A stretch of 64,000 nt of DNA. Source: a virus. The position numbers and the translations under genes were made by a program. The notes under the pieces are model-generated. The model ran no database searches and was not told the origin of the DNA. It saw only the letters and a list, made by a program, of their open reading frames with translations. The DNA lies in the IMG/VR virus record IMGVR_UViG_3300028629_000007; one strand, given 5' to 3'. Shown here in pieces: positions 1 through 55,761 of this stretch; within the stretch, counting starts at the first letter, position 1, and the number at the start of each line of letters is the position of its first letter.

Positions 1-854
1 CCTTCTGGTTCCTGCCCGCCGTCTGGTTTGATTTCTGGGTTTTTCTTTCCCATCTCGTCGGGGGTTACTATAACTTCGTGGTCCGAATCAATGATATCAT
101 CTTCTAACATTCCAGTATTGCCCTTGTTCAACTTATCGTCAAGTGGCAATCCAAACCCGCCCTTATTAACAGGCTTCTTCATTTCATCTGGATTTACGAT
201 AACTTCGTTATCAGAGTCGATAATGTCATCTTCTTTAAGATTTTTACTGTCGAACATATCTTCGCGATCATCATCTAAATGTCTATTCTTCTGACTGTCC
301 CCATGATCGAACATATCTTCTGGTCTGTCATCTTCCGTATCTTCTTCCTTTTCGGGAGCACTTTCGTTGACTTTCTTACCGCGACGTAAGAAAGATGCCA
401 TTACTGGCGACAAAGGTCCGGTTGGACCTGCGGGAATTGGCATTCCTGGGGTTGTTTGTGTTCCAACTGCGGGTACTTCTGTTCCAGGTGTCTCTGGGTT
501 GGTTGGGCACCCGGGCTGCTGGCAGCCAGCAGCACCAGTCAAGTCAATGAGCTTCTCTGGTCCCATTGGTCCTGCTGCACTAAGCTCTTCTGCCTTGGCT
601 ACAACATTATCAATGGATGCTGCGTCTGCGCTGGTTGCCCAGTTAAGCAAGTCACGTAACAGAGTGGAATTGACCGTAACGGTCTTATCTGGAACCGATG
701 CAGCTACTTGAGCAGCATCGACGGCTGGGTTCTCTGGATAGAGGGGATCTACCGCCCCGTCTTCTATTAACTTGCCCATCTTATCATACCCTTCAACGAT
801 CTTCGTGCGGATACTCTGACGAACGTTGTCGAGAGATGGAATCTTGATGTTCAT
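1..854 (-). CDS. Acidic, Pro/Asp-rich hypothetical late protein, runs off the window edge (MNIKIPSLDNVRQSIRTKIVEG...)
   Basis: Manual translation from ATG 854, RBS AGGAGA, late promoter GATAAATA at 877-884; no stop before base 1; internal repeat EDDIIDSDxEVIVxPDEM twice. Confidence 0.85.
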   Translation of the reverse strand, partial: MNIKIPSLDNVRQSIRTKIVEGYDKMGKLIEDGAVDPLYPENPAVDAAQVAASVPDKTVTVNSTLLRDLLNWATSADAASIDNVVAKAEELSAAGPMGPEKLIDLTGAAGCQQPGCPTNPETPGTEVPAVGTQTTPGMPIPAGPTGPLSPVMASFLRRGKKVNESAPEKEEDTEDDRPEDMFDHGDSQKNRHLDDDREDMFDSKNLKEDDIIDSDNEVIVNPDEMKKPVNKGGFGLPLDDKLNKGNTGMLEDDIIDSDHEVIVTPDEMGKKNPEIKPDGGQEPE

Positions 855-856
855 AG

Positions 857-1027
857 TTATTCTCCTGATATTCTTTTATTTATCTGTGTAGCTATGTTCG
901 CCTTAGCTCCGGGTGTCAGCTTCTTAGCTGTTTTGAACTTCCAAGCCCCTTCTATGCGCCTTGCTGTCCATGGCATATCCAAGTATGTTCCCTTTGCGAA
1001 TCCGTTAGATGCTTGCTGGATCTGCAC
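857..1027 (-). CDS. 56-aa basic hypothetical protein, absent from ORF track (MQIQQASNGFAKGTYLDMPWTARRIEGAWKFKTAKK...)
   Basis: GTG start after GGGGGAG; stop TAA 2 nt before the next ATG; fills the gap exactly. Confidence 0.6.
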   Translation of the reverse strand: MQIQQASNGFAKGTYLDMPWTARRIEGAWKFKTAKKLTPGAKANIATQINKRISGE

Positions 1028-2486
1028 TTTTATGCTCCCCCGTTTCGGGGGATTCCTCCTGCTCAGCGTCTCCGCCTACCATGTCATCTACGGGTTCTTC
1101 TTCGGTTCCACCAGCAAGGAACGCTTCCCACTGTTCTGGTGATAGGGCTATGGAGTCAGAGGATATTTCGGCTGCCACTTCTTCCTCGGCTCCTGCCTCC
1201 AAGCCCCCTAAGCCCACATCACCCATTTCGCCAGCTTCGGCTCCTGCTTCACCGCCAACTTCCATTTCTGGAACATCGGCAGTTACTTCATCTCCTTCTT
1301 CACCCATGACTATAGACTCTCCTATTCCATTGAGTCTCTCCTTAACACCCTGAACTATCATGTCAATCTTGTCAATGTCAGATGGGTAATGCTTAAGAAC
1401 GAACTGTGAGATAACTTGTCCATTGACTTCCCCACCAAGTCCAGCAGCATAATCTGCTGCATCTTGAATAACGAGGTCTAACTCGGACGTTGCGCTCTCT
1501 TCCTGTGGGACAGGAAGCTCTTCTCCACCAACATCTCCCAATCCTTCAGCGCCAGGAACGCCAGTTTCTGAGGCTCCAAGGTCTTCTTCTCCACCGATAT
1601 CTTCTATGTCGCTTTCGACAGGAATGGTTTCAGCTACTTCTTGTGCCTTTGCGACTGTCTCGGCATCGAAAGGAACTTCTCCTGCTTCGATGGTAACAGT
1701 GATCTTAGCACCTGGGAACTTAGCTTGGAGGTCAGCAATCAATCCAGCTTCCGGTGGTGCGTCCTGACCAACATTGTCAAGCCCTGGCTCCACGTCCATT
1801 TCAGGGACTTCAGCTTCAGGTGCTACTTCTGGAGTTACTTCTGGAGTTACTTCTGGAGTTACTTGGTCAAGATTTAAGCCTTCCGCTTCCATAAACTTGC
1901 GGAAATGATTAAAAAGTCTCTTTCCTTTAGATTCTTTTGTGGTTACTTTCTCTGGAAAGGTGCGCTGCTGTGGCTTTGTCTTGCACTTCTGTCCTGGCTT
2001 GCAGCCAAGACGTTCAGGAAAGCGAGCAATACCAGTTGGTCCTGTTCCTTCGGCTGGGTCGCCAGCGCCGGGGGCACTTACAGTGGCTCCACCAGCAGAT
2101 CCGGGCGCAGCGTCTTCAGTTGCCTTCTTAGCCTTTTCTTCTTGTCTTTTCTTTTTCTCAGCATCAACTACTTTTTGCTTAGCATGGGCATGTGTCCACC
2201 CCATCGTTGGCTTCTTTCCTTCGGTTGCCTTCTTGCCGAAGATGGTCTTACCCTCGGTCTTGTCTTCTTTCTTATCGTCTTCCTTTTCTTCTACCTTTGA
2301 TGCTTCCTTTTGTTCTTCAGCGCCCTTCTTTTTGAACTGGTGTGCCTTTAGGGCATCTGGTAGCTTGCGCTTGCCCTCTTCCAGCTTCTCCTTCTTAGTA
2401 GCGGAGACATTGACTTCAGTGTCCTCCTTCGCCCAGGATTCTTGTAGTTGCTTCCACTGATTACGATAGTCGCGCATGTCTGCCAT
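1005..2486 (-). CDS. Very acidic low-complexity late protein, possible head scaffold or internal protein
   Basis: 493 aa, Glu/Gly/Ala-rich, PEVT repeats, AGGAG RBS, TATAAATA at 2521-2528. Confidence 0.8.
   Translation of the reverse strand: MADMRDYRNQWKQLQESWAKEDTEVNVSATKKEKLEEGKRKLPDALKAHQFKKKGAEEQKEASKVEEKEDDKKEDKTEGKTIFGKKATEGKKPTMGWTHAHAKQKVVDAEKKKRQEEKAKKATEDAAPGSAGGATVSAPGAGDPAEGTGPTGIARFPERLGCKPGQKCKTKPQQRTFPEKVTTKESKGKRLFNHFRKFMEAEGLNLDQVTPEVTPEVTPEVAPEAEVPEMDVEPGLDNVGQDAPPEAGLIADLQAKFPGAKITVTIEAGEVPFDAETVAKAQEVAETIPVESDIEDIGGEEDLGASETGVPGAEGLGDVGGEELPVPQEESATSELDLVIQDAADYAAGLGGEVNGQVISQFVLKHYPSDIDKIDMIVQGVKERLNGIGESIVMGEEGDEVTADVPEMEVGGEAGAEAGEMGDVGLGGLEAGAEEEVAAEISSDSIALSPEQWEAFLAGGTEEEPVDDMVGGDAEQEESPETGEHKSADPASI
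1824..1864. repeat. 12-nt tandem repeat (TACTTCTGGAGT x3) encoding PEVT repeats
   Basis: Direct inspection. Confidence 0.9.
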
Positions 2487-2540
2487 AAGTGTCTCCTAAA
2501 GGGGTATAATACTTCAATAGTATTTATACGACTTTCATTA

Positions 2541-2700
2541 TATCAAGTAGCCAAAATTATGTGAACTACCCACCCGCTAAAGCGAGTGGGCTTCAGGTTT
2601 CATAGACACTTCTATTGAAGTCGCCTCCACCTGTTTTTGTTTAGAGTCCGATTTAATTCCTAAACCAGACTTTTGATTTAAACCTTGTTGTAATATATTA
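2541..2700 (-). ncRNA. Predicted omegaRNA (tnpB 3' end plus right-end hairpin) with guide ATAATTTTGGCTACTTGATA
   Basis: Known TnpB architecture; 5' boundary approximate. Confidence 0.6.
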
Positions 2701-3851
2701 AGACTTGCATTTAAGTCTCTATCTATTACTTTTCCACATTGACAAGTCCATTCACGGTCTTTTATATTTAATCCTTCATTAATCCAACCACAATGACTAC
2801 AAGTTTTAGAACTTGGGAAGAAGCGGTCTATTACGACCAATTCTCTTCCATACCATTCTGCCTTATAGTTTAGCTGTCGAACGAATTCACCCCAACCACA
2901 ATTGCCGATTGATTTAGCAAGATTGTGATTTGACATCATACCTTTAACATTCAAATCTTCAATACATATCACTTGGTTTTCGTGAATTAACTTATGTGAA
3001 AGTTTATGTAAGAAGTCTTGACGGTTATTATGTATTTTTTCGTGAACTAATGCTACTTGTTTTCTGTATTTTATTCTACTATTACTCTCCTTTTTCTTTT
3101 TACTTAATTGTCTTTGTGTGAACTTGAGTTTCTTTTCTAACTTATGATAATGTTTGGGATTATCAAACTTATCCCCATTACTACAAACTGCGAAATCTTT
3201 AATACCCAAATCTACTCCTATTGACTCATCATTCTTTGGAAGTTTTTGTATTTCTCCAACTTCACAAGTAATTGAAACAAAATACTTCCCCAATGGAGTT
3301 TTAGAAATCGTAATGAAGTTAATATCTCCTATTTCACGATGAGCATTTAACTCTATACCTTCATTAAACTTTGGAAAGTAAATCTTATTATCTTCAATTG
3401 AAATATGCTGTGGAACTCTAAAAGATTGTTTATCCCATTTACTTTTAAACTTTGGAAACTTACTTTGTTTACGGAAGAAACGATTATATGCTCCATCTAA
3501 ATCTCTTAAAGTATGTTGAAGTGTCTGTGAGTTTATTTCTTTTAACCAAGCAGTTTCTTCTACTTTCTTTAATTCAACCAATTCAGTTGCACAATCATAG
3601 TAATTTAGTGTCTTTTCATTCTTTAAGTATTCGTCTTTTCTTCTGTTTAGGAAGTGATTCCAAACAAATCTCTTACAACCAAAATGCTTGGCAAGTAGCA
3701 CTTCTTGGTCTTTCGTAGGTAGAAGTTGGAATTTAAACGATTTGAGCATATTACTATTATACCACCTTCTAAAGATATTTATACGAGATTTTTAGTTTTT
3801 GTAAAAGTTTCTTTCAAGTAACCACCACTCATTATAAATGGTGGGAATATG
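2561..3851 (-). mobile_element. IS200/IS605-family (IS1341-like) tnpB-only element
   Basis: Right end GAAGCCCACTCGCTTTAGCGGGTGGGTAGTTCAC at 2561; left end TTTAT|CATATTCCCACCA at 3851; no tnpA. Confidence 0.85.
2577..3749 (-). CDS. tnpB: RNA-guided endonuclease TnpB
   Basis: N-terminal HTH, RuvC motifs GVDLG / IEDL / DRDLNA, zinc finger CSHC..CQCG. Confidence 0.95.
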   Translation of the reverse strand: MLKSFKFQLLPTKDQEVLLAKHFGCKRFVWNHFLNRRKDEYLKNEKTLNYYDCATELVELKKVEETAWLKEINSQTLQHTLRDLDGAYNRFFRKQSKFPKFKSKWDKQSFRVPQHISIEDNKIYFPKFNEGIELNAHREIGDINFITISKTPLGKYFVSITCEVGEIQKLPKNDESIGVDLGIKDFAVCSNGDKFDNPKHYHKLEKKLKFTQRQLSKKKKESNSRIKYRKQVALVHEKIHNNRQDFLHKLSHKLIHENQVICIEDLNVKGMMSNHNLAKSIGNCGWGEFVRQLNYKAEWYGRELVVIDRFFPSSKTCSHCGWINEGLNIKDREWTCQCGKVIDRDLNASLNILQQGLNQKSGLGIKSDSKQKQVEATSIEVSMKPEAHSL

Positions 3852-3895
3852 ATAAAAGTTATGTAATGCTTTTATCTACATGGTATAATACAAAC

Positions 3896-4078
3896 ATGAC
3901 AAAGAAAGAATTAGATTGTTATGATGCCACAACGCCCGAATGCGTGGAAGACGTTTGGAATTCAGACTTAATATATAACTCAAAGATTGTAGGGACTATT
4001 TTTGGTCAATCTGAACGTGAAATAAAAAAATATATTAAGCGTTGGGTCCAGCAAACTCGGACTGACAGTAAGCCTTAA
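3896..4078 (+). CDS. 60-aa hypothetical protein, rare plus-strand gene
   Basis: TGGTATAAT extended -10 just before ATG; nearly leaderless. Confidence 0.5.
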   Translation: MTKKELDCYDATTPECVEDVWNSDLIYNSKIVGTIFGQSEREIKKYIKRWVQQTRTDSKP

Positions 4079-5564
4079 ACTTTTCTTTATTTTCTGGTGT
4101 TAGCTTCTTATACCAAGTGTCAATATCTTTCATTGGTATTTTCTTATCTTGCTGAATAGCCACTAAGACAGCATCTCTTAATGACTTATCAGCATCTCTT
4201 ATCTCTTCTATAAACATGCGAGCGAATGCGGGGAATTCTCTTGGAGAGTTGATATATGCGGCATACGAAGATAGATCTTGCTTATGCTGTAATCTATTGG
4301 GATCATTCACATGTGTCAACTCATGCCATATACCGCGTGTAACAAATGCCTTTATTTTGTCAAGTTTCTTCAAGTTGCTAACAAGTGAATCAGCAGAGAT
4401 ATAGATTGCATCTTCTTTCTCGTTGAAGTAAAGAGCAGATTCAATATCTGGTGACGTACTTAAGAGTTTCTTTTGGATATTTACAGATATGGAACGACCG
4501 TCCATTTCTATAGAATCTTCCACATAAGTATTATAGCCTTGTGTATATGTTTCTTGAATCTTCTGAAGTAATTCATCAATGTTTTTCGACAGCCATTGAC
4601 GAATAGAATTCGTAGGAAGGCTGACGAGAGTTTCGTTCATAGTATCATCTTCTATAAGATATTCGGTCGATACTACAAATCGTATATTTTCCGAACCCAT
4701 CATATCTCTAGTAAACTCATCAACTGCTTCAAGCATGTTTTCTTCTTCGTTATAAACATACTTAAAATTGAAATATTTTCCAAGTTTGACCCACACATCA
4801 AACGAACCCTTTCCAGTTTCGCCAGTTAGTGATGTATCGGAATATAAAGTCTTCATGAATTCTTCTATAGCATAAATGTAAAGCTTGATAGCTATGCCTT
4901 TACCCTGTGCCTCTGGGGCAAGAGCGACTGATTCTGTTTTCCATTGACCATCTTCGGTATACCAGATAAATTCACCGACATGCGTTCCTTCGGCGTTATA
5001 TAGATGTATTTGAAGATTATCTCTTCTTGACCACGTTTCCGCTTTGTATCCACTTATGTTAAACTCATCTACCAAAGTCATACCCCTACGGTTTAACATA
5101 GATAATACTTCTCTTTTATTTTGTTTAACAACGTAGTTGGAAATGTCTTTATTTCCGTCATTCCATGCTGGCATTTCGACCAAGCGACTTTCCCGTATCT
5201 CTTGATTACGTATCAACTCGTTTATCATCTTGCCGTATGCGTTTATAGCCTGTACCTTGACATTGATCAGCTTCATACCACGCTGCTTGGCTGCGGCAAG
5301 TCGATGATGTCCGTTCTGACAGATTATCTCTCCATCACGATATATCGACACATCTATAGGCTCACTGAAGTCCATGGATGCTGCTACATCATCAGGGACA
5401 GAACCGACTTCACTGGAATTGAGTCGCTTGATAATCTGTGGGTTCATGAACTTGATTTCTGGAATAACTTGATGATACTTCACATTGTCTTCATAAACCA
5501 TCTGAGCATCGGCTTCCAGTTGACTCCAAGTTTCTTTCAGTATCTTTAAGCGATTATCCCTCAT
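4035..5564 (-). CDS. Multidomain late protein: ParB/Srx-like + GNAT-like + HExxH metallopeptidase-like
   Basis: PIDV..NGHHRLAAAK; LAPEAQGKGIAIKLY; IWHELTHV. Confidence 0.8.
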   Translation of the reverse strand: MRDNRLKILKETWSQLEADAQMVYEDNVKYHQVIPEIKFMNPQIIKRLNSSEVGSVPDDVAASMDFSEPIDVSIYRDGEIICQNGHHRLAAAKQRGMKLINVKVQAINAYGKMINELIRNQEIRESRLVEMPAWNDGNKDISNYVVKQNKREVLSMLNRRGMTLVDEFNISGYKAETWSRRDNLQIHLYNAEGTHVGEFIWYTEDGQWKTESVALAPEAQGKGIAIKLYIYAIEEFMKTLYSDTSLTGETGKGSFDVWVKLGKYFNFKYVYNEEENMLEAVDEFTRDMMGSENIRFVVSTEYLIEDDTMNETLVSLPTNSIRQWLSKNIDELLQKIQETYTQGYNTYVEDSIEMDGRSISVNIQKKLLSTSPDIESALYFNEKEDAIYISADSLVSNLKKLDKIKAFVTRGIWHELTHVNDPNRLQHKQDLSSYAAYINSPREFPAFARMFIEEIRDADKSLRDAVLVAIQQDKKIPMKDIDTWYKKLTPENKEKFKAYCQSEFAGPNA

Positions 5565-5566
5565 AT

Positions 5567-6046
5567 TTAAACCCCTGCCGTCTTTAATACTTTATACATT
5601 GATTTCCATTCGGTATTCCAGTTTGTATTATTTCTAATAATAGATAAAAACACTTCTCTACCGCCAAGATATTTGTAATTTATAATATTTGCATGCTTTC
5701 CGTATTGATCAAGTGCTAGTTTTTGTAGATATTTAACGTTAATTTCTCCCATTTCATCAAAATATCTATTACCATGTGATATTGCAACATGATATATATC
5801 AGGCTCCCCATCCAGTAATTCATCATCGGTAATCACATCAGTAACGAATGCAATTTTTAAATTTTTGTCTTTAAGATATTCTAAAATAGCGATGGCAGCC
5901 ATTCCGCAATTTCCCCCACCAAGAGAGCAACCATGTGATTTTAGAATTTCGTAACATTTTATGATTCTTGAGAATATATCATTCTCTTTGTTTTTTTCAA
6001 CTATTTTATTCCATGATTCCTTGAGATTCTTAAGCAGGTTGTCCAT
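5567..6046 (-). CDS. Hypothetical protein with papain/transglutaminase-like Cys-His-Asp motifs
   Basis: GGNCGMAA..YHVAI..YFDEMG. Confidence 0.6.
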   Translation of the reverse strand: MDNLLKNLKESWNKIVEKNKENDIFSRIIKCYEILKSHGCSLGGGNCGMAAIAILEYLKDKNLKIAFVTDVITDDELLDGEPDIYHVAISHGNRYFDEMGEINVKYLQKLALDQYGKHANIINYKYLGGREVFLSIIRNNTNWNTEWKSMYKVLKTAGV

Positions 6047-6924
6047 TAGTCACCACCCACTTCATCACTTATCTCTTCTCTGCTTCCATTGACAATGACA
6101 TACTTCAGCATGCGTTGTCCCTGTAGAGGAATTGCGAGGCACTTCAGCGTTAGCTGCCGATCAAGTCCCTCGTTGTTATTTCCCATGTAATAGGTAATCC
6201 AATCCTCAAGAATAGGCAGATAGAGGATGACCCGTTCCTTGACCAGCGACTTCCTAAGAACCTTACCTTTCTTCAAGCGGTTCTTGTCGATGGTGGCAAG
6301 ATGGTAGCCAACAGGCTCTCCATCTTTTTCTTCAGGCTGATTCCAATACAGATATGGCTGCCCGTCAAGATAGGTCTGCGACTGCTTCTTCAGGTTCTCA
6401 AACAGGTTTGATTCCATGCTGGCGTCTTTGATAATCTCATTCAAGTCTCTCTTGAATCCCTCCATGATATACAAACCAATGGCTTCAAGAAACTTGATGT
6501 CTCCTTCGTTGAGGGCTACAATGTTCTTGAAAGAGGATGACTCATGAAGAATAGACTGGGTGAAGAGTCTCTGGATTCTACTTCTATTTTCGTTGGTTGT
6601 CATGTTGGGTTCAGCAGGAGGCTTGCCTTCCCATTCCGCTGGCTGGTTGAATAGCTTGTGATCCACTTCTTTTCCGTTCATCCACACCGTGAACCATATA
6701 CGACTTTTGGGAAACTTACCAAATACCCATTCTGCTCGCTTTAGCGCACCTTCAAGCGACTTGGCAGAACCATAAGCGTCTTGAAACTTTTTGACAGATC
6801 CGTCTTTATCTATAACTTCCCAGTTCACAGTGTAAGTAACTGGATAGACTCTTCCGGGGCTTGTGTCAAGACCAAGTTTTGACTTATACTTTAGCTGTTC
6901 TTGGTCGAAAGTTTCTTTGGGCAT
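6046..6924 (-). CDS. Hypothetical late protein
   Basis: 292 aa, TATAAATA at 6930-6937, coupled to downstream genes. Confidence 0.8.
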   Translation of the reverse strand: MPKETFDQEQLKYKSKLGLDTSPGRVYPVTYTVNWEVIDKDGSVKKFQDAYGSAKSLEGALKRAEWVFGKFPKSRIWFTVWMNGKEVDHKLFNQPAEWEGKPPAEPNMTTNENRSRIQRLFTQSILHESSSFKNIVALNEGDIKFLEAIGLYIMEGFKRDLNEIIKDASMESNLFENLKKQSQTYLDGQPYLYWNQPEEKDGEPVGYHLATIDKNRLKKGKVLRKSLVKERVILYLPILEDWITYYMGNNNEGLDRQLTLKCLAIPLQGQRMLKYVIVNGSREEISDEVGGD

Positions 6925-6932
6925 GCCTTTAT

Positions 6933-7073
6933 TTATATCTTCTTGATCTGATCCTCTACCCTGTCAATGGTCTTTTTAGCAGTCGCAATAAGAAACTTTC
7001 TTATAGTCCAGAGCATATATAGATTTACAGCAAGTGTCGTAAGGTTGGCTAAAGCGATTATTATGGTTAGCAT
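6933..7073 (-). CDS. 46-aa single-transmembrane peptide (MLTIIIALANLTTLAVNLYMLWTIRKF...)
   Basis: Manual translation; AAGGAG RBS inside a hairpin; late-type AATAAATA at 7092-7099. Confidence 0.65.
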   Translation of the reverse strand: MLTIIIALANLTTLAVNLYMLWTIRKFLIATAKKTIDRVEDQIKKI

Positions 7074-7094
7074 AACAGAAACTCCTTCTGTTAT

Positions 7095-7553
7095 TTATTC
7101 CTTGATGTATATCGTAATAGGAATCTTGGTAGCTTCTTCGAACTTCTGTAAAGCCGACGAATACCATTCCCAATTCCCTCCGCCTAACCCACAACCAATT
7201 TTCGCAGGGAACGCAAGTGACTTAGGATTCAACTTCTTTATCTCCCGTAGGCACGAAATAAAATACTTTTTACGATGCTCAGCGGAGTCCCCAACGGGGT
7301 CATCGTCACGGGGCTTCCCCGGATTATATTGGGCGAACATGTTGATGATGTTCGGCTCACATGGTTCTCCACCACGGGCTACATTGATGGTTCCTGGCTT
7401 ATCTGGTTCCCAGCGAGTTGAGTAACAGTCTGCGTATGTGTAGTTAGCAAACAGAACAGCAGCTAATCCAGCAGCACCATGTGATACACAATTGCATTGA
7501 TGACATATATACTCTTCACGAGCCTTCAAGATGTCAAGATGCTTGGTTTCCAT
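7095..7553 (-). CDS. Macrodomain ADP-ribose hydrolase (TARG1/DarG-like)
   Basis: ICHQCNC..GAAGLA; IINMFAQY; AFPAKIGCGLGGGNW. Confidence 0.9.
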   Translation of the reverse strand: METKHLDILKAREEYICHQCNCVSHGAAGLAAVLFANYTYADCYSTRWEPDKPGTINVARGGEPCEPNIINMFAQYNPGKPRDDDPVGDSAEHRKKYFISCLREIKKLNPKSLAFPAKIGCGLGGGNWEWYSSALQKFEEATKIPITIYIKE

Positions 7554-7582
7554 GTTCCATCTTTCTTTGACAGCTATTGTGT

Positions 7583-7801
7583 CTATCCAGCATATCCCAT
7601 AAAACTTCTGGGGGCAAGAGAATTCAAGTATTCTTCAAAACCATCACGAGACTTCATACGGCACTTGACAAGCTGACAATCAATGGGATTGCCATGACAC
7701 TCGGGACATTCACTATGCAATGCCATGAGGCTGTTTATAAGATCTTCTCGTGTGATTCCTTCCATCAATCTCTCCTTAGCCATGGAGGAACCACACGACA
7801 T
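7583..7801 (-). CDS. Small Cys-rich hypothetical protein
   Basis: ORF track; CPECHGNP..C..C; operon packing. Confidence 0.6.
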   Translation of the reverse strand: MSCGSSMAKERLMEGITREDLINSLMALHSECPECHGNPIDCQLVKCRMKSRDGFEEYLNSLAPRSFMGYAG

Positions 7802-7974
7802 CTTTCCTTGAATTTCCTCATAAAATCCTCACGCAATACATTCGTAAGATGCACATGCTCTGGATCAGACAAGGTAGTCTTGAAGTCGTGAAAGAAATCT
7901 TCAAACTCGCTCCACCTAAAGGTAGCAGATCCATATTTTTCAGTTTCCATAGAAGAACCTTTCATGGTCATCAA
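7765..7974 (-). CDS. Hypothetical protein
   Basis: ORF track, operon packing. Confidence 0.55.
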   Translation of the reverse strand: MMTMKGSSMETEKYGSATFRWSEFEDFFHDFKTTLSDPEHVHLTNVLREDFMRKFKERCRVVPPWLRRD

Positions 7975-8716
7975 TCCACCCCTTGGGCATGAATTGAGGC
8001 TTCATATTGTCAAGAAAATGCTTTCGCCAGCGCACAATGAATTCGCGAAGATCCTTTTGATGTGATACGATAACAGAAGCTGGAGAAACACTTGGAGTTT
8101 CTTTGGCTATTTCTTGCCTAAATGATGATATTGAAGTTTTGTCAATATCAACAACGCCAAAATGGTCGCCAATTTCTCTTAATAGAACATCTCGACGTTG
8201 CGGCGGAATATCGTCCCACTTGCTTTCCAGCGTCATGATGATAGCGTTCAGCTTTTCTGCCTTGACTACTTCGGGTAGCTTCTGGTTGTTCTTGGTGACT
8301 ATACCAGCCTCTTTTGCGAGCTTGGCGTTGAACAGATCAGCTTCTCTTTCATATTCTTCATGATGTTCTATACAAACAGGAAGAATGTCAAAATGATTAT
8401 GCGACTTCAGGACATCTGGGAAATGCTTTCGGTATTGGTAAGGAACGATATGATGCTTGGTCAGGTTCTTATCAGTTCCACATATGACACATTTATTACT
8501 CATGTTGTTTTTATAAACATCGGACAGGTGAAGATTGCCTATTCCCTTTGGTTCAAATAATAGTTGTATTGTCTTTTCGTCAACTTGTTTCGCCAATCCC
8601 TTCTTTAGATACCAGCGTATCTTCTTTCCATCGCAAAAACACATTCTATCACCACTAGGATGGAGTATAGAGTAGTTTTCATATATGTCAGTATCATTAC
8701 CGTGAAGATAAGTCAT
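7940..8716 (-). CDS. HNH-like protein resembling the EXD2 C-terminal domain
   Basis: YEN..ILHPSG..CFCD.KK..WYL.KG; CVICG..LTKHHIVPYQYRKHFP..KSHNHFDILPVC..HH. Confidence 0.75.
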   Translation of the reverse strand: MTYLHGNDTDIYENYSILHPSGDRMCFCDGKKIRWYLKKGLAKQVDEKTIQLLFEPKGIGNLHLSDVYKNNMSNKCVICGTDKNLTKHHIVPYQYRKHFPDVLKSHNHFDILPVCIEHHEEYEREADLFNAKLAKEAGIVTKNNQKLPEVVKAEKLNAIIMTLESKWDDIPPQRRDVLLREIGDHFGVVDIDKTSISSFRQEIAKETPSVSPASVIVSHQKDLREFIVRWRKHFLDNMKPQFMPKGWIDDHERFFYGN

Positions 8717-8723
8717 TAGTAGT

Positions 8724-8751
8724 ATTCTAACGAATCATATAGGGAAGTCAA
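8724..8751 (-). promoter_or_regulatory. Early promoter TTGACT-N16-TAGAAT
   Basis: Consensus match upstream of 8716. Confidence 0.7.
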
Positions 8752-9545
8752 ATGTTTTTACTTTTTAGGTATTTGTCAGAGTGACTTCCAACAAGAACCC
8801 AATTTCCAGACCTACCAGATTTTAGTGACATTTCACTTCTACATAAATGGTATTTTCTCGCCAGTTCACTTACACATCCAGATTCCTGTTCACCTGTCGC
8901 AATATTTCTAATCGTAGCTAACTTTGCGTTTTTAATAGACAATCCCTTACACAACTCTTTATCTCTCGGTATTGATGGCATTGTAACATCAATTCCGTCC
9001 TTTGTTGTCAACCGAACCATTCTCCAATCTTTCGACTTTCCTCTCGCACTCATATGCTTGTAGTTAAAATAATATTGCTTAGCCAATACCTTCATACATC
9101 CACTTACAATTTCATTAGTTTTAATATTTCTTATGGTGGTTATAAGCGCATTAGGGTGTGATATTCCTGCCTGTTTTCCTTTTCGGCTTATACTCCATTT
9201 TCTTTTGGTTTCCTCATTATGTTTTCCATGGGAACCACCTTCCATTAAATTAAACCCACACCTTTTGTCTCGACACTTATATTTTTTGATATAGTATCTT
9301 TCCATTATATCCAGTCTCTTTTTGCTATATGCCTTACATATTACTGCGAAATCAAAAGAATCAATTCCATACTTTTTTATTGCTCTGTTTAGGTGCGTTC
9401 GATTGCCTCCTAAAGAACATACGTACTCTCGTCTATAATACTGGTATGGATCTTGTGTAGTTTGTCCAAAATACTTCCTATTGTCTTTTTTCAGAGTTAG
9501 ACAATAGATATAACCATATACAGGTTTTATAATGTTTTCATTCAT
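8748..9545 (-). CDS. Free-standing GIY-YIG homing endonuclease
   Basis: GYIYCL..KYFGQT; E..YIKKY; N...GG; duplicated C-terminal DNA-binding module. Confidence 0.9.
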   Translation of the reverse strand: MNENIIKPVYGYIYCLTLKKDNRKYFGQTTQDPYQYYRREYVCSLGGNRTHLNRAIKKYGIDSFDFAVICKAYSKKRLDIMERYYIKKYKCRDKRCGFNLMEGGSHGKHNEETKRKWSISRKGKQAGISHPNALITTIRNIKTNEIVSGCMKVLAKQYYFNYKHMSARGKSKDWRMVRLTTKDGIDVTMPSIPRDKELCKGLSIKNAKLATIRNIATGEQESGCVSELARKYHLCRSEMSLKSGRSGNWVLVGSHSDKYLKSKNI

Positions 9546-9698
9546 AATAGTTTCTCCTAATCAGAAGTAAGAACGTTGGGTTAGATCGTGGATTAGGCAC
9601 AATCAGGGGGATCAATCCTTGTCCCCAACATACTTATTTATACGTGAAACTGAATGTTTTTGTTATGAATCTCCAATTTTATTGGGGTGGATCGTAAC

Positions 9699-10331
9699 TC
9701 ATGGCTTCACAGATTCAACCTGCGTAGCAGGAATGTCTTTTTGGTCGGCAAAATACATCTCACCCGTATTGTAATCCTTCACAAGAACCGTCTCTTGGTT
9801 AAACTCTTTAGCCAAGTCGGTTGCTATATTCTCCAGTGTCTTGGAGTCAACATAAAGAATCTCGACAGATAGCGAGTTCTCGTTGAATGTCTTTCCACTC
9901 TTCGACTTGTAGACTCCACGGAAGAATCTTCCAATGGTCATACCACCGCCCCCACCAGAGTAGACCGTGTTTTTGATTCTACTAACGCTGGTTAAGCGGT
10001 TCAACAGGGTATTAGCCCACGCCTTTATCTTTCCAATAATGCCGGATCCTGCGGTTGCGTTGATGTCGGTTGACAGGGTTATAACTCCACCTTTTAGACC
10101 ATCAGGAATATTCTCGGCTCTTGCCTCCTTGATGACTTCGAGGACATTGTTGTTGGTGTCAATGGATATGGACTGAAGACGAAACTTGCTATAGACACCG
10201 TTACCCATAGTATCTTCAATCAGAGTCTTTTTGTATTCTCCATTGCCGATGATGACAACGCCGTTGACCATACGGTTGAATACTTTACTAACCTTGTTTT
10301 CCAGCGATTCTTTGAAATCTTTCATTGACAT
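9699..10331 (-). CDS. Hypothetical late protein
   Basis: ORF track, RBS GGAG. Confidence 0.75.
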   Translation of the reverse strand: MSMKDFKESLENKVSKVFNRMVNGVVIIGNGEYKKTLIEDTMGNGVYSKFRLQSISIDTNNNVLEVIKEARAENIPDGLKGGVITLSTDINATAGSGIIGKIKAWANTLLNRLTSVSRIKNTVYSGGGGGMTIGRFFRGVYKSKSGKTFNENSLSVEILYVDSKTLENIATDLAKEFNQETVLVKDYNTGEMYFADQKDIPATQVESVKP

Positions 10332-10334
10332 ATG

Positions 10335-10658
10335 TTACTCCTTGGTTCTCTTAGGTCTTTCGCCCAGAGACGCACGAATGGCTGACATTTTCATGATACC
10401 AGAGTCAACGTCGTAGTCAAATTTCAGCCCCAGCGGCTCCTTGGAGTCACGAACATACTTAATGGGCTGTAGGAGCATCTTAACCGTGTTATTCCTCATG
10501 CGGAAAAACATCTTGGGGTCATTTACTGGATTTTCAGATTCAAGGACCGCCTCATATTTAGAGAAGAGTGTCTCCAGTACCTTCTCAGCGACGGTAGTAA
10601 CCTGTCCAACTGTGACAGTTGGTTGAAGCGTGATAGTAGCAGTAAGATGGTCTTCCAT
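10335..10658 (-). CDS. Hypothetical late protein
   Basis: CATAAATA at 10680-10687, RBS AAGGA. Confidence 0.75.
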   Translation of the reverse strand: MEDHLTATITLQPTVTVGQVTTVAEKVLETLFSKYEAVLESENPVNDPKMFFRMRNNTVKMLLQPIKYVRDSKEPLGLKFDYDVDSGIMKMSAIRASLGERPKRTKE

Positions 10659-10682
10659 GTGGTCCTTATGAGTAACTTATAT

Positions 10683-10937
10683 TTATGCTCGGGCGTTGGC
10701 TTCAATCTCACCACAGACATACATGAGCATATGGACGATAGCTGAAAGTTTAACCATTTTGTACTTCTGACAGAGTTCCTTGTCTGGATCTAATGCGAGA
10801 ATAGCATCGGAGCGAGTGTATAACACAGCATCACCGAAGGTGCCAGCATAGAAGTTGTCTTCATAGTGAGCATAGAAGGTGCCGGAATCAGTCTTATCTT
10901 GTAAGACATACATATCAGCGATGGTGTTGCGGCTCAC
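10683..10937 (-). CDS. Hypothetical protein
   Basis: ORF track, coupled. Confidence 0.7.
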   Translation of the reverse strand: MSRNTIADMYVLQDKTDSGTFYAHYEDNFYAGTFGDAVLYTRSDAILALDPDKELCQKYKMVKLSAIVHMLMYVCGEIEANARA

Positions 10938-11137
10938 TTTAGCTCCTGAATGGTCTTGACAATGCCGATTGCTTCAACAAGAACATCTCGTTGATGCTTG
11001 ACAGCACGATACTCGTCTCGTAAAGTCTCAAGCTCCTTGAACATACAGAGCGGGCATATCACGGGATGCCCCGTTGGGTTCTCGTATTCAAAGTCAAGGT
11101 CATGGATGTTGCAGTGAAATTTCATGTGATTCCTCAA
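10934..11137 (-). CDS. Small zinc-ribbon/coiled-coil protein
   Basis: C..H..CPLC then coiled coil. Confidence 0.7.
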   Translation of the reverse strand: MRNHMKFHCNIHDLDFEYENPTGHPVICPLCMFKELETLRDEYRAVKHQRDVLVEAIGIVKTIQELK

Positions 11138-11331
11138 GCCTTCGTGACTTCGGCGTAGATATAGGTTTCTGGTACAGGACCAACGAAGTCCCTTTGGCAG
11201 TTGACGGCGCGGGCTGCTTCGATAGCCTCCTGCTCATCATCGTAAAACGAGACATCCAGAATTTCCTGACTCCGGAATCTATCGGATTCCCTGACAGTGA
11301 CTTTCCAGAGTTTATCGGTGGTAATCTTCAT
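11134..11331 (-). CDS. Hypothetical protein
   Basis: Early promoter and RBS upstream. Confidence 0.75.
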   Translation of the reverse strand: MKITTDKLWKVTVRESDRFRSQEILDVSFYDDEQEAIEAARAVNCQRDFVGPVPETYIYAEVTKA

Positions 11332-11372
11332 ATAGTTCCTTATGCTACTATCTTACAGAAAGGGAAGAGAAG

Positions 11373-11690
11373 TCAAGCACCTTTCCAGCCACCACCATAT
11401 TTCTTCTGCCAGTAGTCAGGATTCATGAACTCCTTGTGTCGCTTTACCATGGCTTCCCATTCTTTCTTCGTCATGGACGCCTCCTGAACAGCTTCAGTGG
11501 CTTCACCACACTCATCGAATACTTCACAGCCATGACAGCCCTTTGCCCAGGCACTTTCATTGCCCTGTGGGAGACTTCCCCAGCAGTCGGGGCACTTGTC
11601 GATGGTGTAGTGGCGTGTAATCGGCTTGAAATTCTTGACAGCGGCTTTCTGTGCCTTCTTCCAACGCTTATAGTATGCCGATTCGCTCAT
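11373..11690 (-). CDS. Cys-rich hypothetical protein
   Basis: ATGA overlap with upstream gene; CPDC..CHGC..C. Confidence 0.7.
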   Translation of the reverse strand: MSESAYYKRWKKAQKAAVKNFKPITRHYTIDKCPDCWGSLPQGNESAWAKGCHGCEVFDECGEATEAVQEASMTKKEWEAMVKRHKEFMNPDYWQKKYGGGWKGA

Positions 11691-12031
11691 GGCGTAACCT
11701 TGCCAGCATGCTTTCGGGCAACCTTCGCAACCCACTTGAAGATGCCAGATTGAGCCAGCGCATACTCTTCGACGGTGAAGCCATCGTTGCAGCCGCCGCT
11801 CGCCCAGTTGATGCTGTCGGTTGCCTTACCATTCCATTCCTCACGGTAGTCCAGCGTAGCGATGTCGGACGACCAGTGACAGGACGAACCGAACTTATAA
11901 CTGATGCGAGTGACCTTCTTTCCCCTGCGATACACGCAGCGGAACATGGTCAGTGTGATACGGTCGTTCAGCTTCTTGGTGAATTTCTTTTCGGTCCAAG
12001 TGTCGAGAACTTCTGGTGCAGGCTTGCTCAT
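11687..12031 (-). CDS. Hypothetical protein
   Basis: Promoter TTGACT-N15-TATGAT at 12052-12078; RBS AAGGA. Confidence 0.75.
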   Translation of the reverse strand: MSKPAPEVLDTWTEKKFTKKLNDRITLTMFRCVYRRGKKVTRISYKFGSSCHWSSDIATLDYREEWNGKATDSINWASGGCNDGFTVEEYALAQSGIFKWVAKVARKHAGKVTP

Positions 12032-55358: not shown

Positions 55359-55761
55359 GTGAATACACCCACCCCCTAAAGGGAGTGGGCTTCTAGGTGG
55401 AGTTTCAACCACCAAAGATTATATACCTAATCTTGTCTGTTCTGTTTATGTTAAGTTTCTTTCTACTTTAAGTAGTTGTATATTATAGAGTTATAATTTC
55501 ACACTCATCTTACTTAACGAAATATACAATATATTTGTTTTAACTGTATATAGTTTTACGAGTAGGTCAGTCACTTCCTAACCAGTTATTGGACTTATTG
55601 ACTTTGCCATTAACCTGTAGTATTGTTTCCTACTCAACCTGTCTACATTGTTTTTCAAAGAACTAAGTTAATTGTAACTTGTTATTTTAGAAAGTCAACC
55701 ATCAAGTTACCCACCATTCATCCCATCGGCTAAAGCCAATGGGTTTTCTGGTGGAACGATG
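55359..55761 (-). mobile_element. Non-autonomous IS200/IS605 derivative (MITE-like, no tnpA or tnpB)
   Basis: LE TTTAT|CATCGTTCCACCAGAAAACCCATTGGCTTTAGCCGATGGG; RE GAAGCCCACTCCCTTTAGGGGGTGGGTGTATTCAC; excision restores the host ORF. Confidence 0.9.

Follow-up and report, generated by a model that had tools for sequence, protein, structure and literature searches.

A tnpB-only IS200/IS605 element with a degenerate left end in a large sewage-sludge phage

The element and its two ends

The DNA analysed here, called the window throughout, is a stretch of 64,000 nucleotides under IMG/VR record IMGVR_UViG_3300028629_000007, and its source is a large sewage-sludge phage. Its minus strand carries a tnpB-only element of the IS200/IS605 family (IS1341 type), 1291 bp long (2561-3851). 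It occupies a short spacer that has a divergent 60-aa gene on one side and, on the other, the promoter-like octamer TATAAATA of a downstream 493-aa gene. Along its coding strand the element comprises a degenerate left end, a conserved block with another copy of TATAAATA, the tnpB gene, and a right end where a predicted omegaRNA scaffold overlaps the gene. The pentanucleotide TTTAT, its target and predicted target-adjacent motif (TAM), lies directly 5′ of the left end and outside the element (3852-3856, minus strand), and TTTAT abuts the left end in most relatives as well; the right terminus is TTCAC at 2561, and the right flank holds no repeat of the target. A tblastn search with TnpAs of the family detected no tnpA in the 64-kb window. 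The only other family member found there is a gene-less mini element of 403 bp with both hairpins intact (55359-55761, minus strand), which served as comparator.

In the usual layout of the left end, TTTAT is followed by 7 nt, a 6-nt outer arm, GAAAAC, an inner hairpin, ATGAA, and the second outer arm, and the inner hairpin resembles the one at the right end, as seen in alignments with the relatives and the mini element. The left end of the window copy (3822-3851, minus strand), examined by alignments, register comparison, and DNA folds, reads CATATTC, CCACCA (3844-3839), TTTATA (3838-3833), ATGAG, and TGGTGG (3827-3822). Both arms of the outer stem, CCACCA and TGGTGG, are retained, and alignment with the mini element and the relatives shows that 27 nt, running from GAAAAC to GATGGG and holding the inner hairpin, have been replaced by TTTATA. 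The first-pass annotation of this DNA had described both the alignment of this end with an element near 55.7 kb and the loss of the hairpin, and both descriptions were confirmed. Folded as single-stranded DNA, the window left end reaches -5.5 kcal/mol, which is no better than shuffled sequences (z -0.8), as against -16.4 kcal/mol (z -4.3) for the left end of the close relative L098 and -14.4 kcal/mol (z -3.9) for that of the mini element, whose hairpin lies at 55722-55743. The right-end hairpin of the window copy (2569-2590, minus strand) folds as DNA at -10 kcal/mol (z -3.6). The replacement hexamer TTTATA (3833-3838, minus strand) itself contains the target pentamer TTTAT.

The same element is carried by 10 contigs from JGI, ENA, and Logan assemblies, drawn from at least two studies, with one SNP over its whole length. 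Because the same lesion recurs in these 10 contigs, the hairpin deletion is genuine and not an assembly artefact, and the sampled population is fixed for it. The TnpA transposases of IS200/IS605 elements bind subterminal hairpins, and a copy that lacks the left one should therefore be non-excisable. Excision by TnpA has probably been lost, and TnpA would be expected to fail on the remaining 6-bp outer stem by analogy with the biochemistry of IS608 and ISDra2.

The leftover CCACCA/TGGTGG stem, or some other feature, might nonetheless suffice for a cognate TnpA and leave the element mobile. The outer stem covaries among the relatives (CCACCA/TGGTGG, CCGCCA/TGGCGG, and GAGCCA/TGGCTC), which points to a functional structure that is retained here. 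It is the inner hairpin, however, and not the outer stem, that resembles the right-end hairpin, the structure TnpA recognizes in characterized family members. The poorly folding left-end variant was also found nowhere else in a search of IMG/VR, and continued mobility is very unlikely.

TnpB, the predicted omegaRNA, and the guide

The tnpB gene (2577-3749, minus strand) encodes 390 amino acids with HTH, RuvC, and zinc-ribbon regions, and its stop codon falls in the loop of the right-end hairpin. Pfam matches are HTH_OrfB_IS605 (PF12323), OrfB_IS605 (PF01385), and Cas12f1-like_TNB (PF07282), and comparison with solved structures gave ISDra2 TnpB (8EXA, 8BF8, and 8H1J) as an end-to-end match (E 4e-77). 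In the alignment, D180, E264, and D345 stand opposite the catalytic D191, E278, and D361 of ISDra2 TnpB, and the RuvC D-E-D triad is intact, in agreement with an initial reading of the gene as an intact tnpB with all RuvC motifs. The second zinc-binding pair (residues 336-338; 2730-2745, minus strand) is C-x-C and not C-x-x-C, and this form is invariant in 21 aligned members of the clade.

Measured against the closest relatives, L098 and L099, tnpB has a dN/dS of 0.10 at a dS of 0.28, a low value that indicates purifying selection on the lineage, although this selection cannot be placed before or after the loss of the hairpin. The branch leading to the window copy carries 10 synonymous and 7 non-synonymous changes, none of them at catalytic or zinc-binding residues, and its ratio (about 0.2) is not separable from relaxed selection.

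A predicted omegaRNA scaffold of three stem-loops extends over the 3′ end of tnpB (2561-2710, minus strand), and its last stem is the right-end hairpin. RNAalifold, applied to the last 150 nt of 11 elements, gave 33 base pairs, 16 of them with compensatory changes despite the overlap with coding sequence. The window copy keeps 33 of 33 pairs, with a z of -5.2 for its single-sequence fold and a score of 180.6 bits against the covariance model. Following the established TnpB/omegaRNA architecture, the guide is predicted to be the 16 nt directly 3′ of the right end, ATAATTTTGGCTACTT (2545-2560, minus strand), and the TAM to be the insertion target TTTAT. The same two assignments had been made in the first-pass annotation, and they are supported by this architecture and by the recurrence of TTTAT in the relatives. 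The guide sequence is unique in the window and, among the retrieved loci, present solely at this one. Its match at the occupied site is preceded by TTCAC and not by TTTAT, so the element does not target itself.

The mini element was considered as a second source of omegaRNA, but only its right-end hairpin matches the model (25.6 bits at 55359-55498, minus strand, versus 180.6 bits), and because stems 1 and 2 are absent it is a poor stand-alone candidate for this TnpB. Four RNA-labelled runs yielded a few short contigs on the region that carry no information on strand, ends, or level. One exact 236-nt piece covers 2506-2741, its library of origin possibly being DNA, and biofilm metatranscriptomes gave exact pieces of 157-184 nt inside tnpB and the next gene. 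None of these contigs is counted as evidence of expression.

An inert relic would have a different history, in which the insertion, lacking a TnpA, became fixed and began to decay neutrally, with the hairpin deletion as the first lesion and everything else intact through the shortness of time. The counts for the window branch (10 synonymous, 7 non-synonymous) fit such a history, as they represent a higher ratio than the background of 0.10. Yet over a dS of 0.28 tnpB has stayed free of frameshifts and premature stop codons, with its catalytic and zinc-binding positions untouched, and the complete scaffold pairing is accompanied by an intact promoter block, which makes a relic of this kind unlikely.

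Another reading would make the protein a regulator, with a TnpB-omegaRNA complex controlling the downstream 493-aa gene by binding close to its promoter. TldR proteins are domesticated, nuclease-dead TnpB derivatives, some of them phage-encoded, that have no transposon-end function (PMC10705468). The guide sequence does lie inside the promoter region of the 493-aa gene, and the right terminus and flank together (2537-2565, minus strand) form TTCACA-N17-TATAAT with an upstream TG, a pattern match at 11 of 12 positions that may constitute a hybrid outward promoter facing this gene, just upstream of its own TATAAATA. The window TnpB is not a TldR, since its catalytic residues are intact, unlike those of TldR (PMC10705468), and its guide is the native flank. 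A regulatory role is also at odds with the TTCAC that takes the place of the TAM at its own locus, and is extremely improbable.

Relatives of the element and the block upstream of tnpB

Protein searches placed the window copy in a tight TnpB clade with identities of 65-95%, apart from the general family at about 61% or less. All examined neighbourhoods of clade members are phage-like and comprise T4-like and jumbo-phage contigs. L017 is regarded as T4-like because it adjoins gp32, a gp44-like clamp loader, and regA; the contigs of L016, L002, and L020 measure 320-460 kb, and L103 and L104 stand amid long one-strand runs of small ORFs. TnpB homologues were found in 402 of 50,697 isolate-phage records, with all matches below 60% identity. 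A scan of contigs from bacterial genomes returned only a relative at 37%, by an exact-peptide-word method that gives no proof of the clade's absence from bacteria. Distant members (51-56% amino acid identity) encode a divergent Y1 transposase, tnpA.

At least nine relatives retain the inner left-end hairpin, namely L098 (95% amino acid identity), L099 (94%, with a shortened loop), L001 (88%), L017 (86%), L016 (81%), L023, L104 (69%), L003, and L020. Every one of these hairpin-bearing copies occupies a different insertion site, so the lineage has been recently mobile. The distance between TTTAT and the outer stem is fixed in 7 of 10 relatives, and the variants of the target are ATTAT in L001, TTTAC in register in L017, and TATAC in L003, which is read as a 1-nt poly-C offset. 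In L003 and L020 a passenger ORF separates the left end, 400-600 nt upstream, from the tnpB promoter block (L003:5570-5945 and L020:2395-2945). This ORF, of about 148 aa and without a Pfam match in L020, represents cargo in a tnpB-only element.

A recognisable left-end hairpin is missing only from the window copy, L002, and L021, and L103 is without the standard motif. Left-end loss is specific to the window copy among its close kin and is not unique in the clade. Its recurrence in L002 and L021, along with a loop deletion in L099, is consistent with the inert relic considered above. The L099 deletion removes 4 nt from the loop of the left-end hairpin at about 440-480 of that locus (CCCATTGGCACCGATGGG) and may represent a left end caught partway through erosion. 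The L002 locus, on a 323-kb viral contig, also carries a second TnpB element (L002:61-1372) that is roughly 48% identical, has its own left-end hairpin, and lies about 4.6 kb upstream of the first.

Upstream of tnpB lies a conserved block (3776-3805, minus strand) that lies about 56 nt before the ATG and consists of TTTACA (3805-3800), a 16-nt spacer, and TATAAATA (3783-3776). The octamer is on the coding strand, 26 nt before the ATG, at the position first reported for it. All eight copies of TATAAATA in the window are on the coding strand shortly upstream of ORFs, each preceding a ribosome-binding site and start codon, and seven of them fall within the 9% of sequence outside ORFs. From this distribution, the phage appears to use the octamer as a promoter-like motif.

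The combination TTTACA-N16-TATAAATA occurs in all the close hairpin-bearing relatives (L098, L099, L001, L017, and L016), where it is conserved although the sequence of the spacer varies. The exact octamer is present in all six elements whose TnpB is at least 81% identical and in two distant relatives that bear tnpA (L059 and L081). These two are among the roughly 20 distant members, out of about 75, in which TTTACA-N16/17-YATAAA recurs in register. Because the block is shared by hairpin-bearing and tnpA-bearing relatives, it was inherited with the transposon and not acquired, and it is older than the loss of the hairpin. The first-pass annotation had taken TATAAATA for a phage late promoter marking domestication, an interpretation that the presence of the block in these relatives does not support: the octamer and its -35-like box predate the hairpin loss, so TATAAATA marks neither acquisition nor domestication. 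The conserved TTTACA at sigma-70 spacing suggests that a sigma-70 promoter, early or host-type, is at least as likely as a late one. A scan with the sigma-70 consensus does not list TTTACA-N16-TATAAA, in which TATAAA lacks the final T and forms an imperfect -10 box, so the sigma-70 reading draws on conservation and not on a consensus score.

These observations bear directly on domestication by the phage, in which the element would serve as a late RNA-guided homing or competition nuclease, the hairpin having been lost under selection to stop excision and TATAAATA assigning tnpB to the late programme, as with the seg and mob genes of T4. The placement of the octamer before ORFs throughout the window, including one copy ahead of a GIY-YIG gene (8748-9545, minus strand), its exact conservation in the six closest elements, an intact tnpB with low dN/dS, and the similar lack of a recognisable left end in the L002 copy on its jumbo-phage contig are all in keeping with such a role. 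Against it, TATAAATA with TTTACA at 16 nt was present before the hairpin was lost, mobile hairpin-bearing relatives share the same block, and the guide is a natural flank that has not been retargeted. Relatives also split phage genes, which is selfish behaviour: the TnpB of P0004, 93% identical to that of the window, lies between two DNA_methylase (PF00145) fragments and its element has apparently interrupted a phage methylase gene. Domestication in this form is possible but improbable. Quite unlikely is a version in which a phage-adapted TnpB lineage uses the block as a dual early and late promoter and has shed the hairpin under selection to become a fixed RNA-guided homing or exclusion nuclease against co-infecting relatives. 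A second TnpB-like gene lies 3.6 kb from the tnpB of P0004.

The insertion site and RNA-guided homing

The 509-aa gene neighbouring the element has tnpB alongside it in 10 of 10 places among the matches listed. In a phage whose neighbouring gene is 84% identical (L100 and L101), the same intergenic spot holds, in place of tnpB, an unrelated 213-aa ORF on the reverse strand that belongs to no known family (L100:6282-6923 and L101:4012-4653). In a more distant phage (L102, neighbouring gene 62% identical) nothing interrupts the spacer, which is about 50 nt long as against 54 nt in the reconstructed empty site, and the target is not conserved in it. Judged from these loci, the spot looks like an insertion hot spot, and a variable position between conserved genes would also suit a domesticated nuclease.

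The allele without the element, TTTAT followed by the guide sequence, had been proposed as the target in co-infecting phages. Searches for the exact empty junction and for TAM-plus-guide patterns gave no matches in metagenome contigs or viral contigs. A megablast of window positions 1-12000 against isolate phages was likewise without a match, a search of viral contigs with the two flanking proteins found no related loci, and an exact look-up of the 493-aa protein returned no match. The proposed homing is thus without an observed substrate in the collections searched, and with every sampled genome already carrying the element, there may at present be no target for it. Fixation with no target found speaks for an inert relic, and the failure to find an empty allele in these collections speaks against domestication.

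On balance, the element is best read as a stranded, probably competent selfish TnpB-omegaRNA module that would home into element-free alleles without TnpA, and this reading is given a probability of roughly 0.55. A non-autonomous tnpB-only element of a phage-associated lineage would have inserted 3′ of TTTAT, and a later replacement of 27 nt by 6 nt would have removed the inner left-end hairpin that TnpA must bind, after which the copy could presumably be neither excised nor transposed. Every component that RNA-guided cutting requires is still present: the native promoter block, an intact TnpB whose lineage shows purifying selection, the predicted omegaRNA scaffold, the right end, and a guide taken from the flank. 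Were TnpB-omegaRNA expressed, it would cut TTTAT plus ATAATTTTGGCTACTT, which is the allele without the element, and recombination with an occupied genome would copy the element in, amounting to TnpA-independent, non-restorative homing during co-infection.

Cas12 descends from TnpB, whose natural role is RNA-guided homing. Such homing is the ordinary selfish function of TnpB and not a new role in the service of the host, and the term homing nuclease, which had been offered as a sign of domestication, carries no such implication. In its present state the finding amounts to an ordinary tnpB element borne by a phage, with one decayed end.

Several described systems share parts of this arrangement. 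Like ISDra2 TnpB-omegaRNA, the window copy combines a D-E-D triad, a structured RNA over the 3′ end of tnpB and the right end, a guide derived from the flank, and a 5-nt target and TAM 5′ of the left end (TTGAT in ISDra2, TTTAT here); unlike ISDra2, it has no tnpA in the element or the window, its inner left-end hairpin is deleted, its second zinc pair is CxC, and it resides in a virulent-type phage genome. Among phages, tnpB-only IS200/IS605 elements (ISCaje1-3) were reported in 2010 from the T4-like Campylobacter phages CP220 and CPt10 (PMC2853527). These elements resemble the present one in being TnpB-only inhabitants of T4-like phage genomes, with closely related copies inserted elsewhere in related phages, but they belong to another TnpB lineage and were described as complete IS elements, whereas the left end here is degenerate.

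TnpB has been established as a homing nuclease (Meers et al., PMC10055086), and TnpA-independent, TnpB-driven non-restorative homing of IS605, including homing into co-infecting phages or plasmids, has been discussed in a 2026 review on the basis of plasmid data (PMC13565253). The mechanism suggested for the window copy has the same elements, with an RNA-guided cut of the transposon-free allele and repair from the occupied copy in the absence of TnpA. Such homing has been demonstrated with IS605 on plasmids, whereas for phages it is no more than a proposal and for the window copy purely an inference. Homing into co-infecting phages is plausible, and the idea is already in the literature. A phage copy that TnpA can no longer move, but that keeps its nuclease, scaffold, and promoter, would offer a clean natural case for a test of TnpA-independent homing, and the comparative set assembled here, with its TAM (TTTAT), omegaRNA structure, and left ends with and without the hairpin, eases the design of such a test.

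The free-standing Seg and Mob homing endonucleases of T-even phages provide a further parallel, being nuclease genes at variable spots between conserved phage genes. They differ in that recognition here is guided by RNA and not by protein, and in the transposon ends and transposon origin of the present element. The window also holds a seg-like gene behind TATAAATA, the GIY-YIG homing-endonuclease gene mentioned above, with the octamer 89 nt upstream, and an HNH-like gene (7940-8716, minus strand) lies about 4 kb from tnpB.
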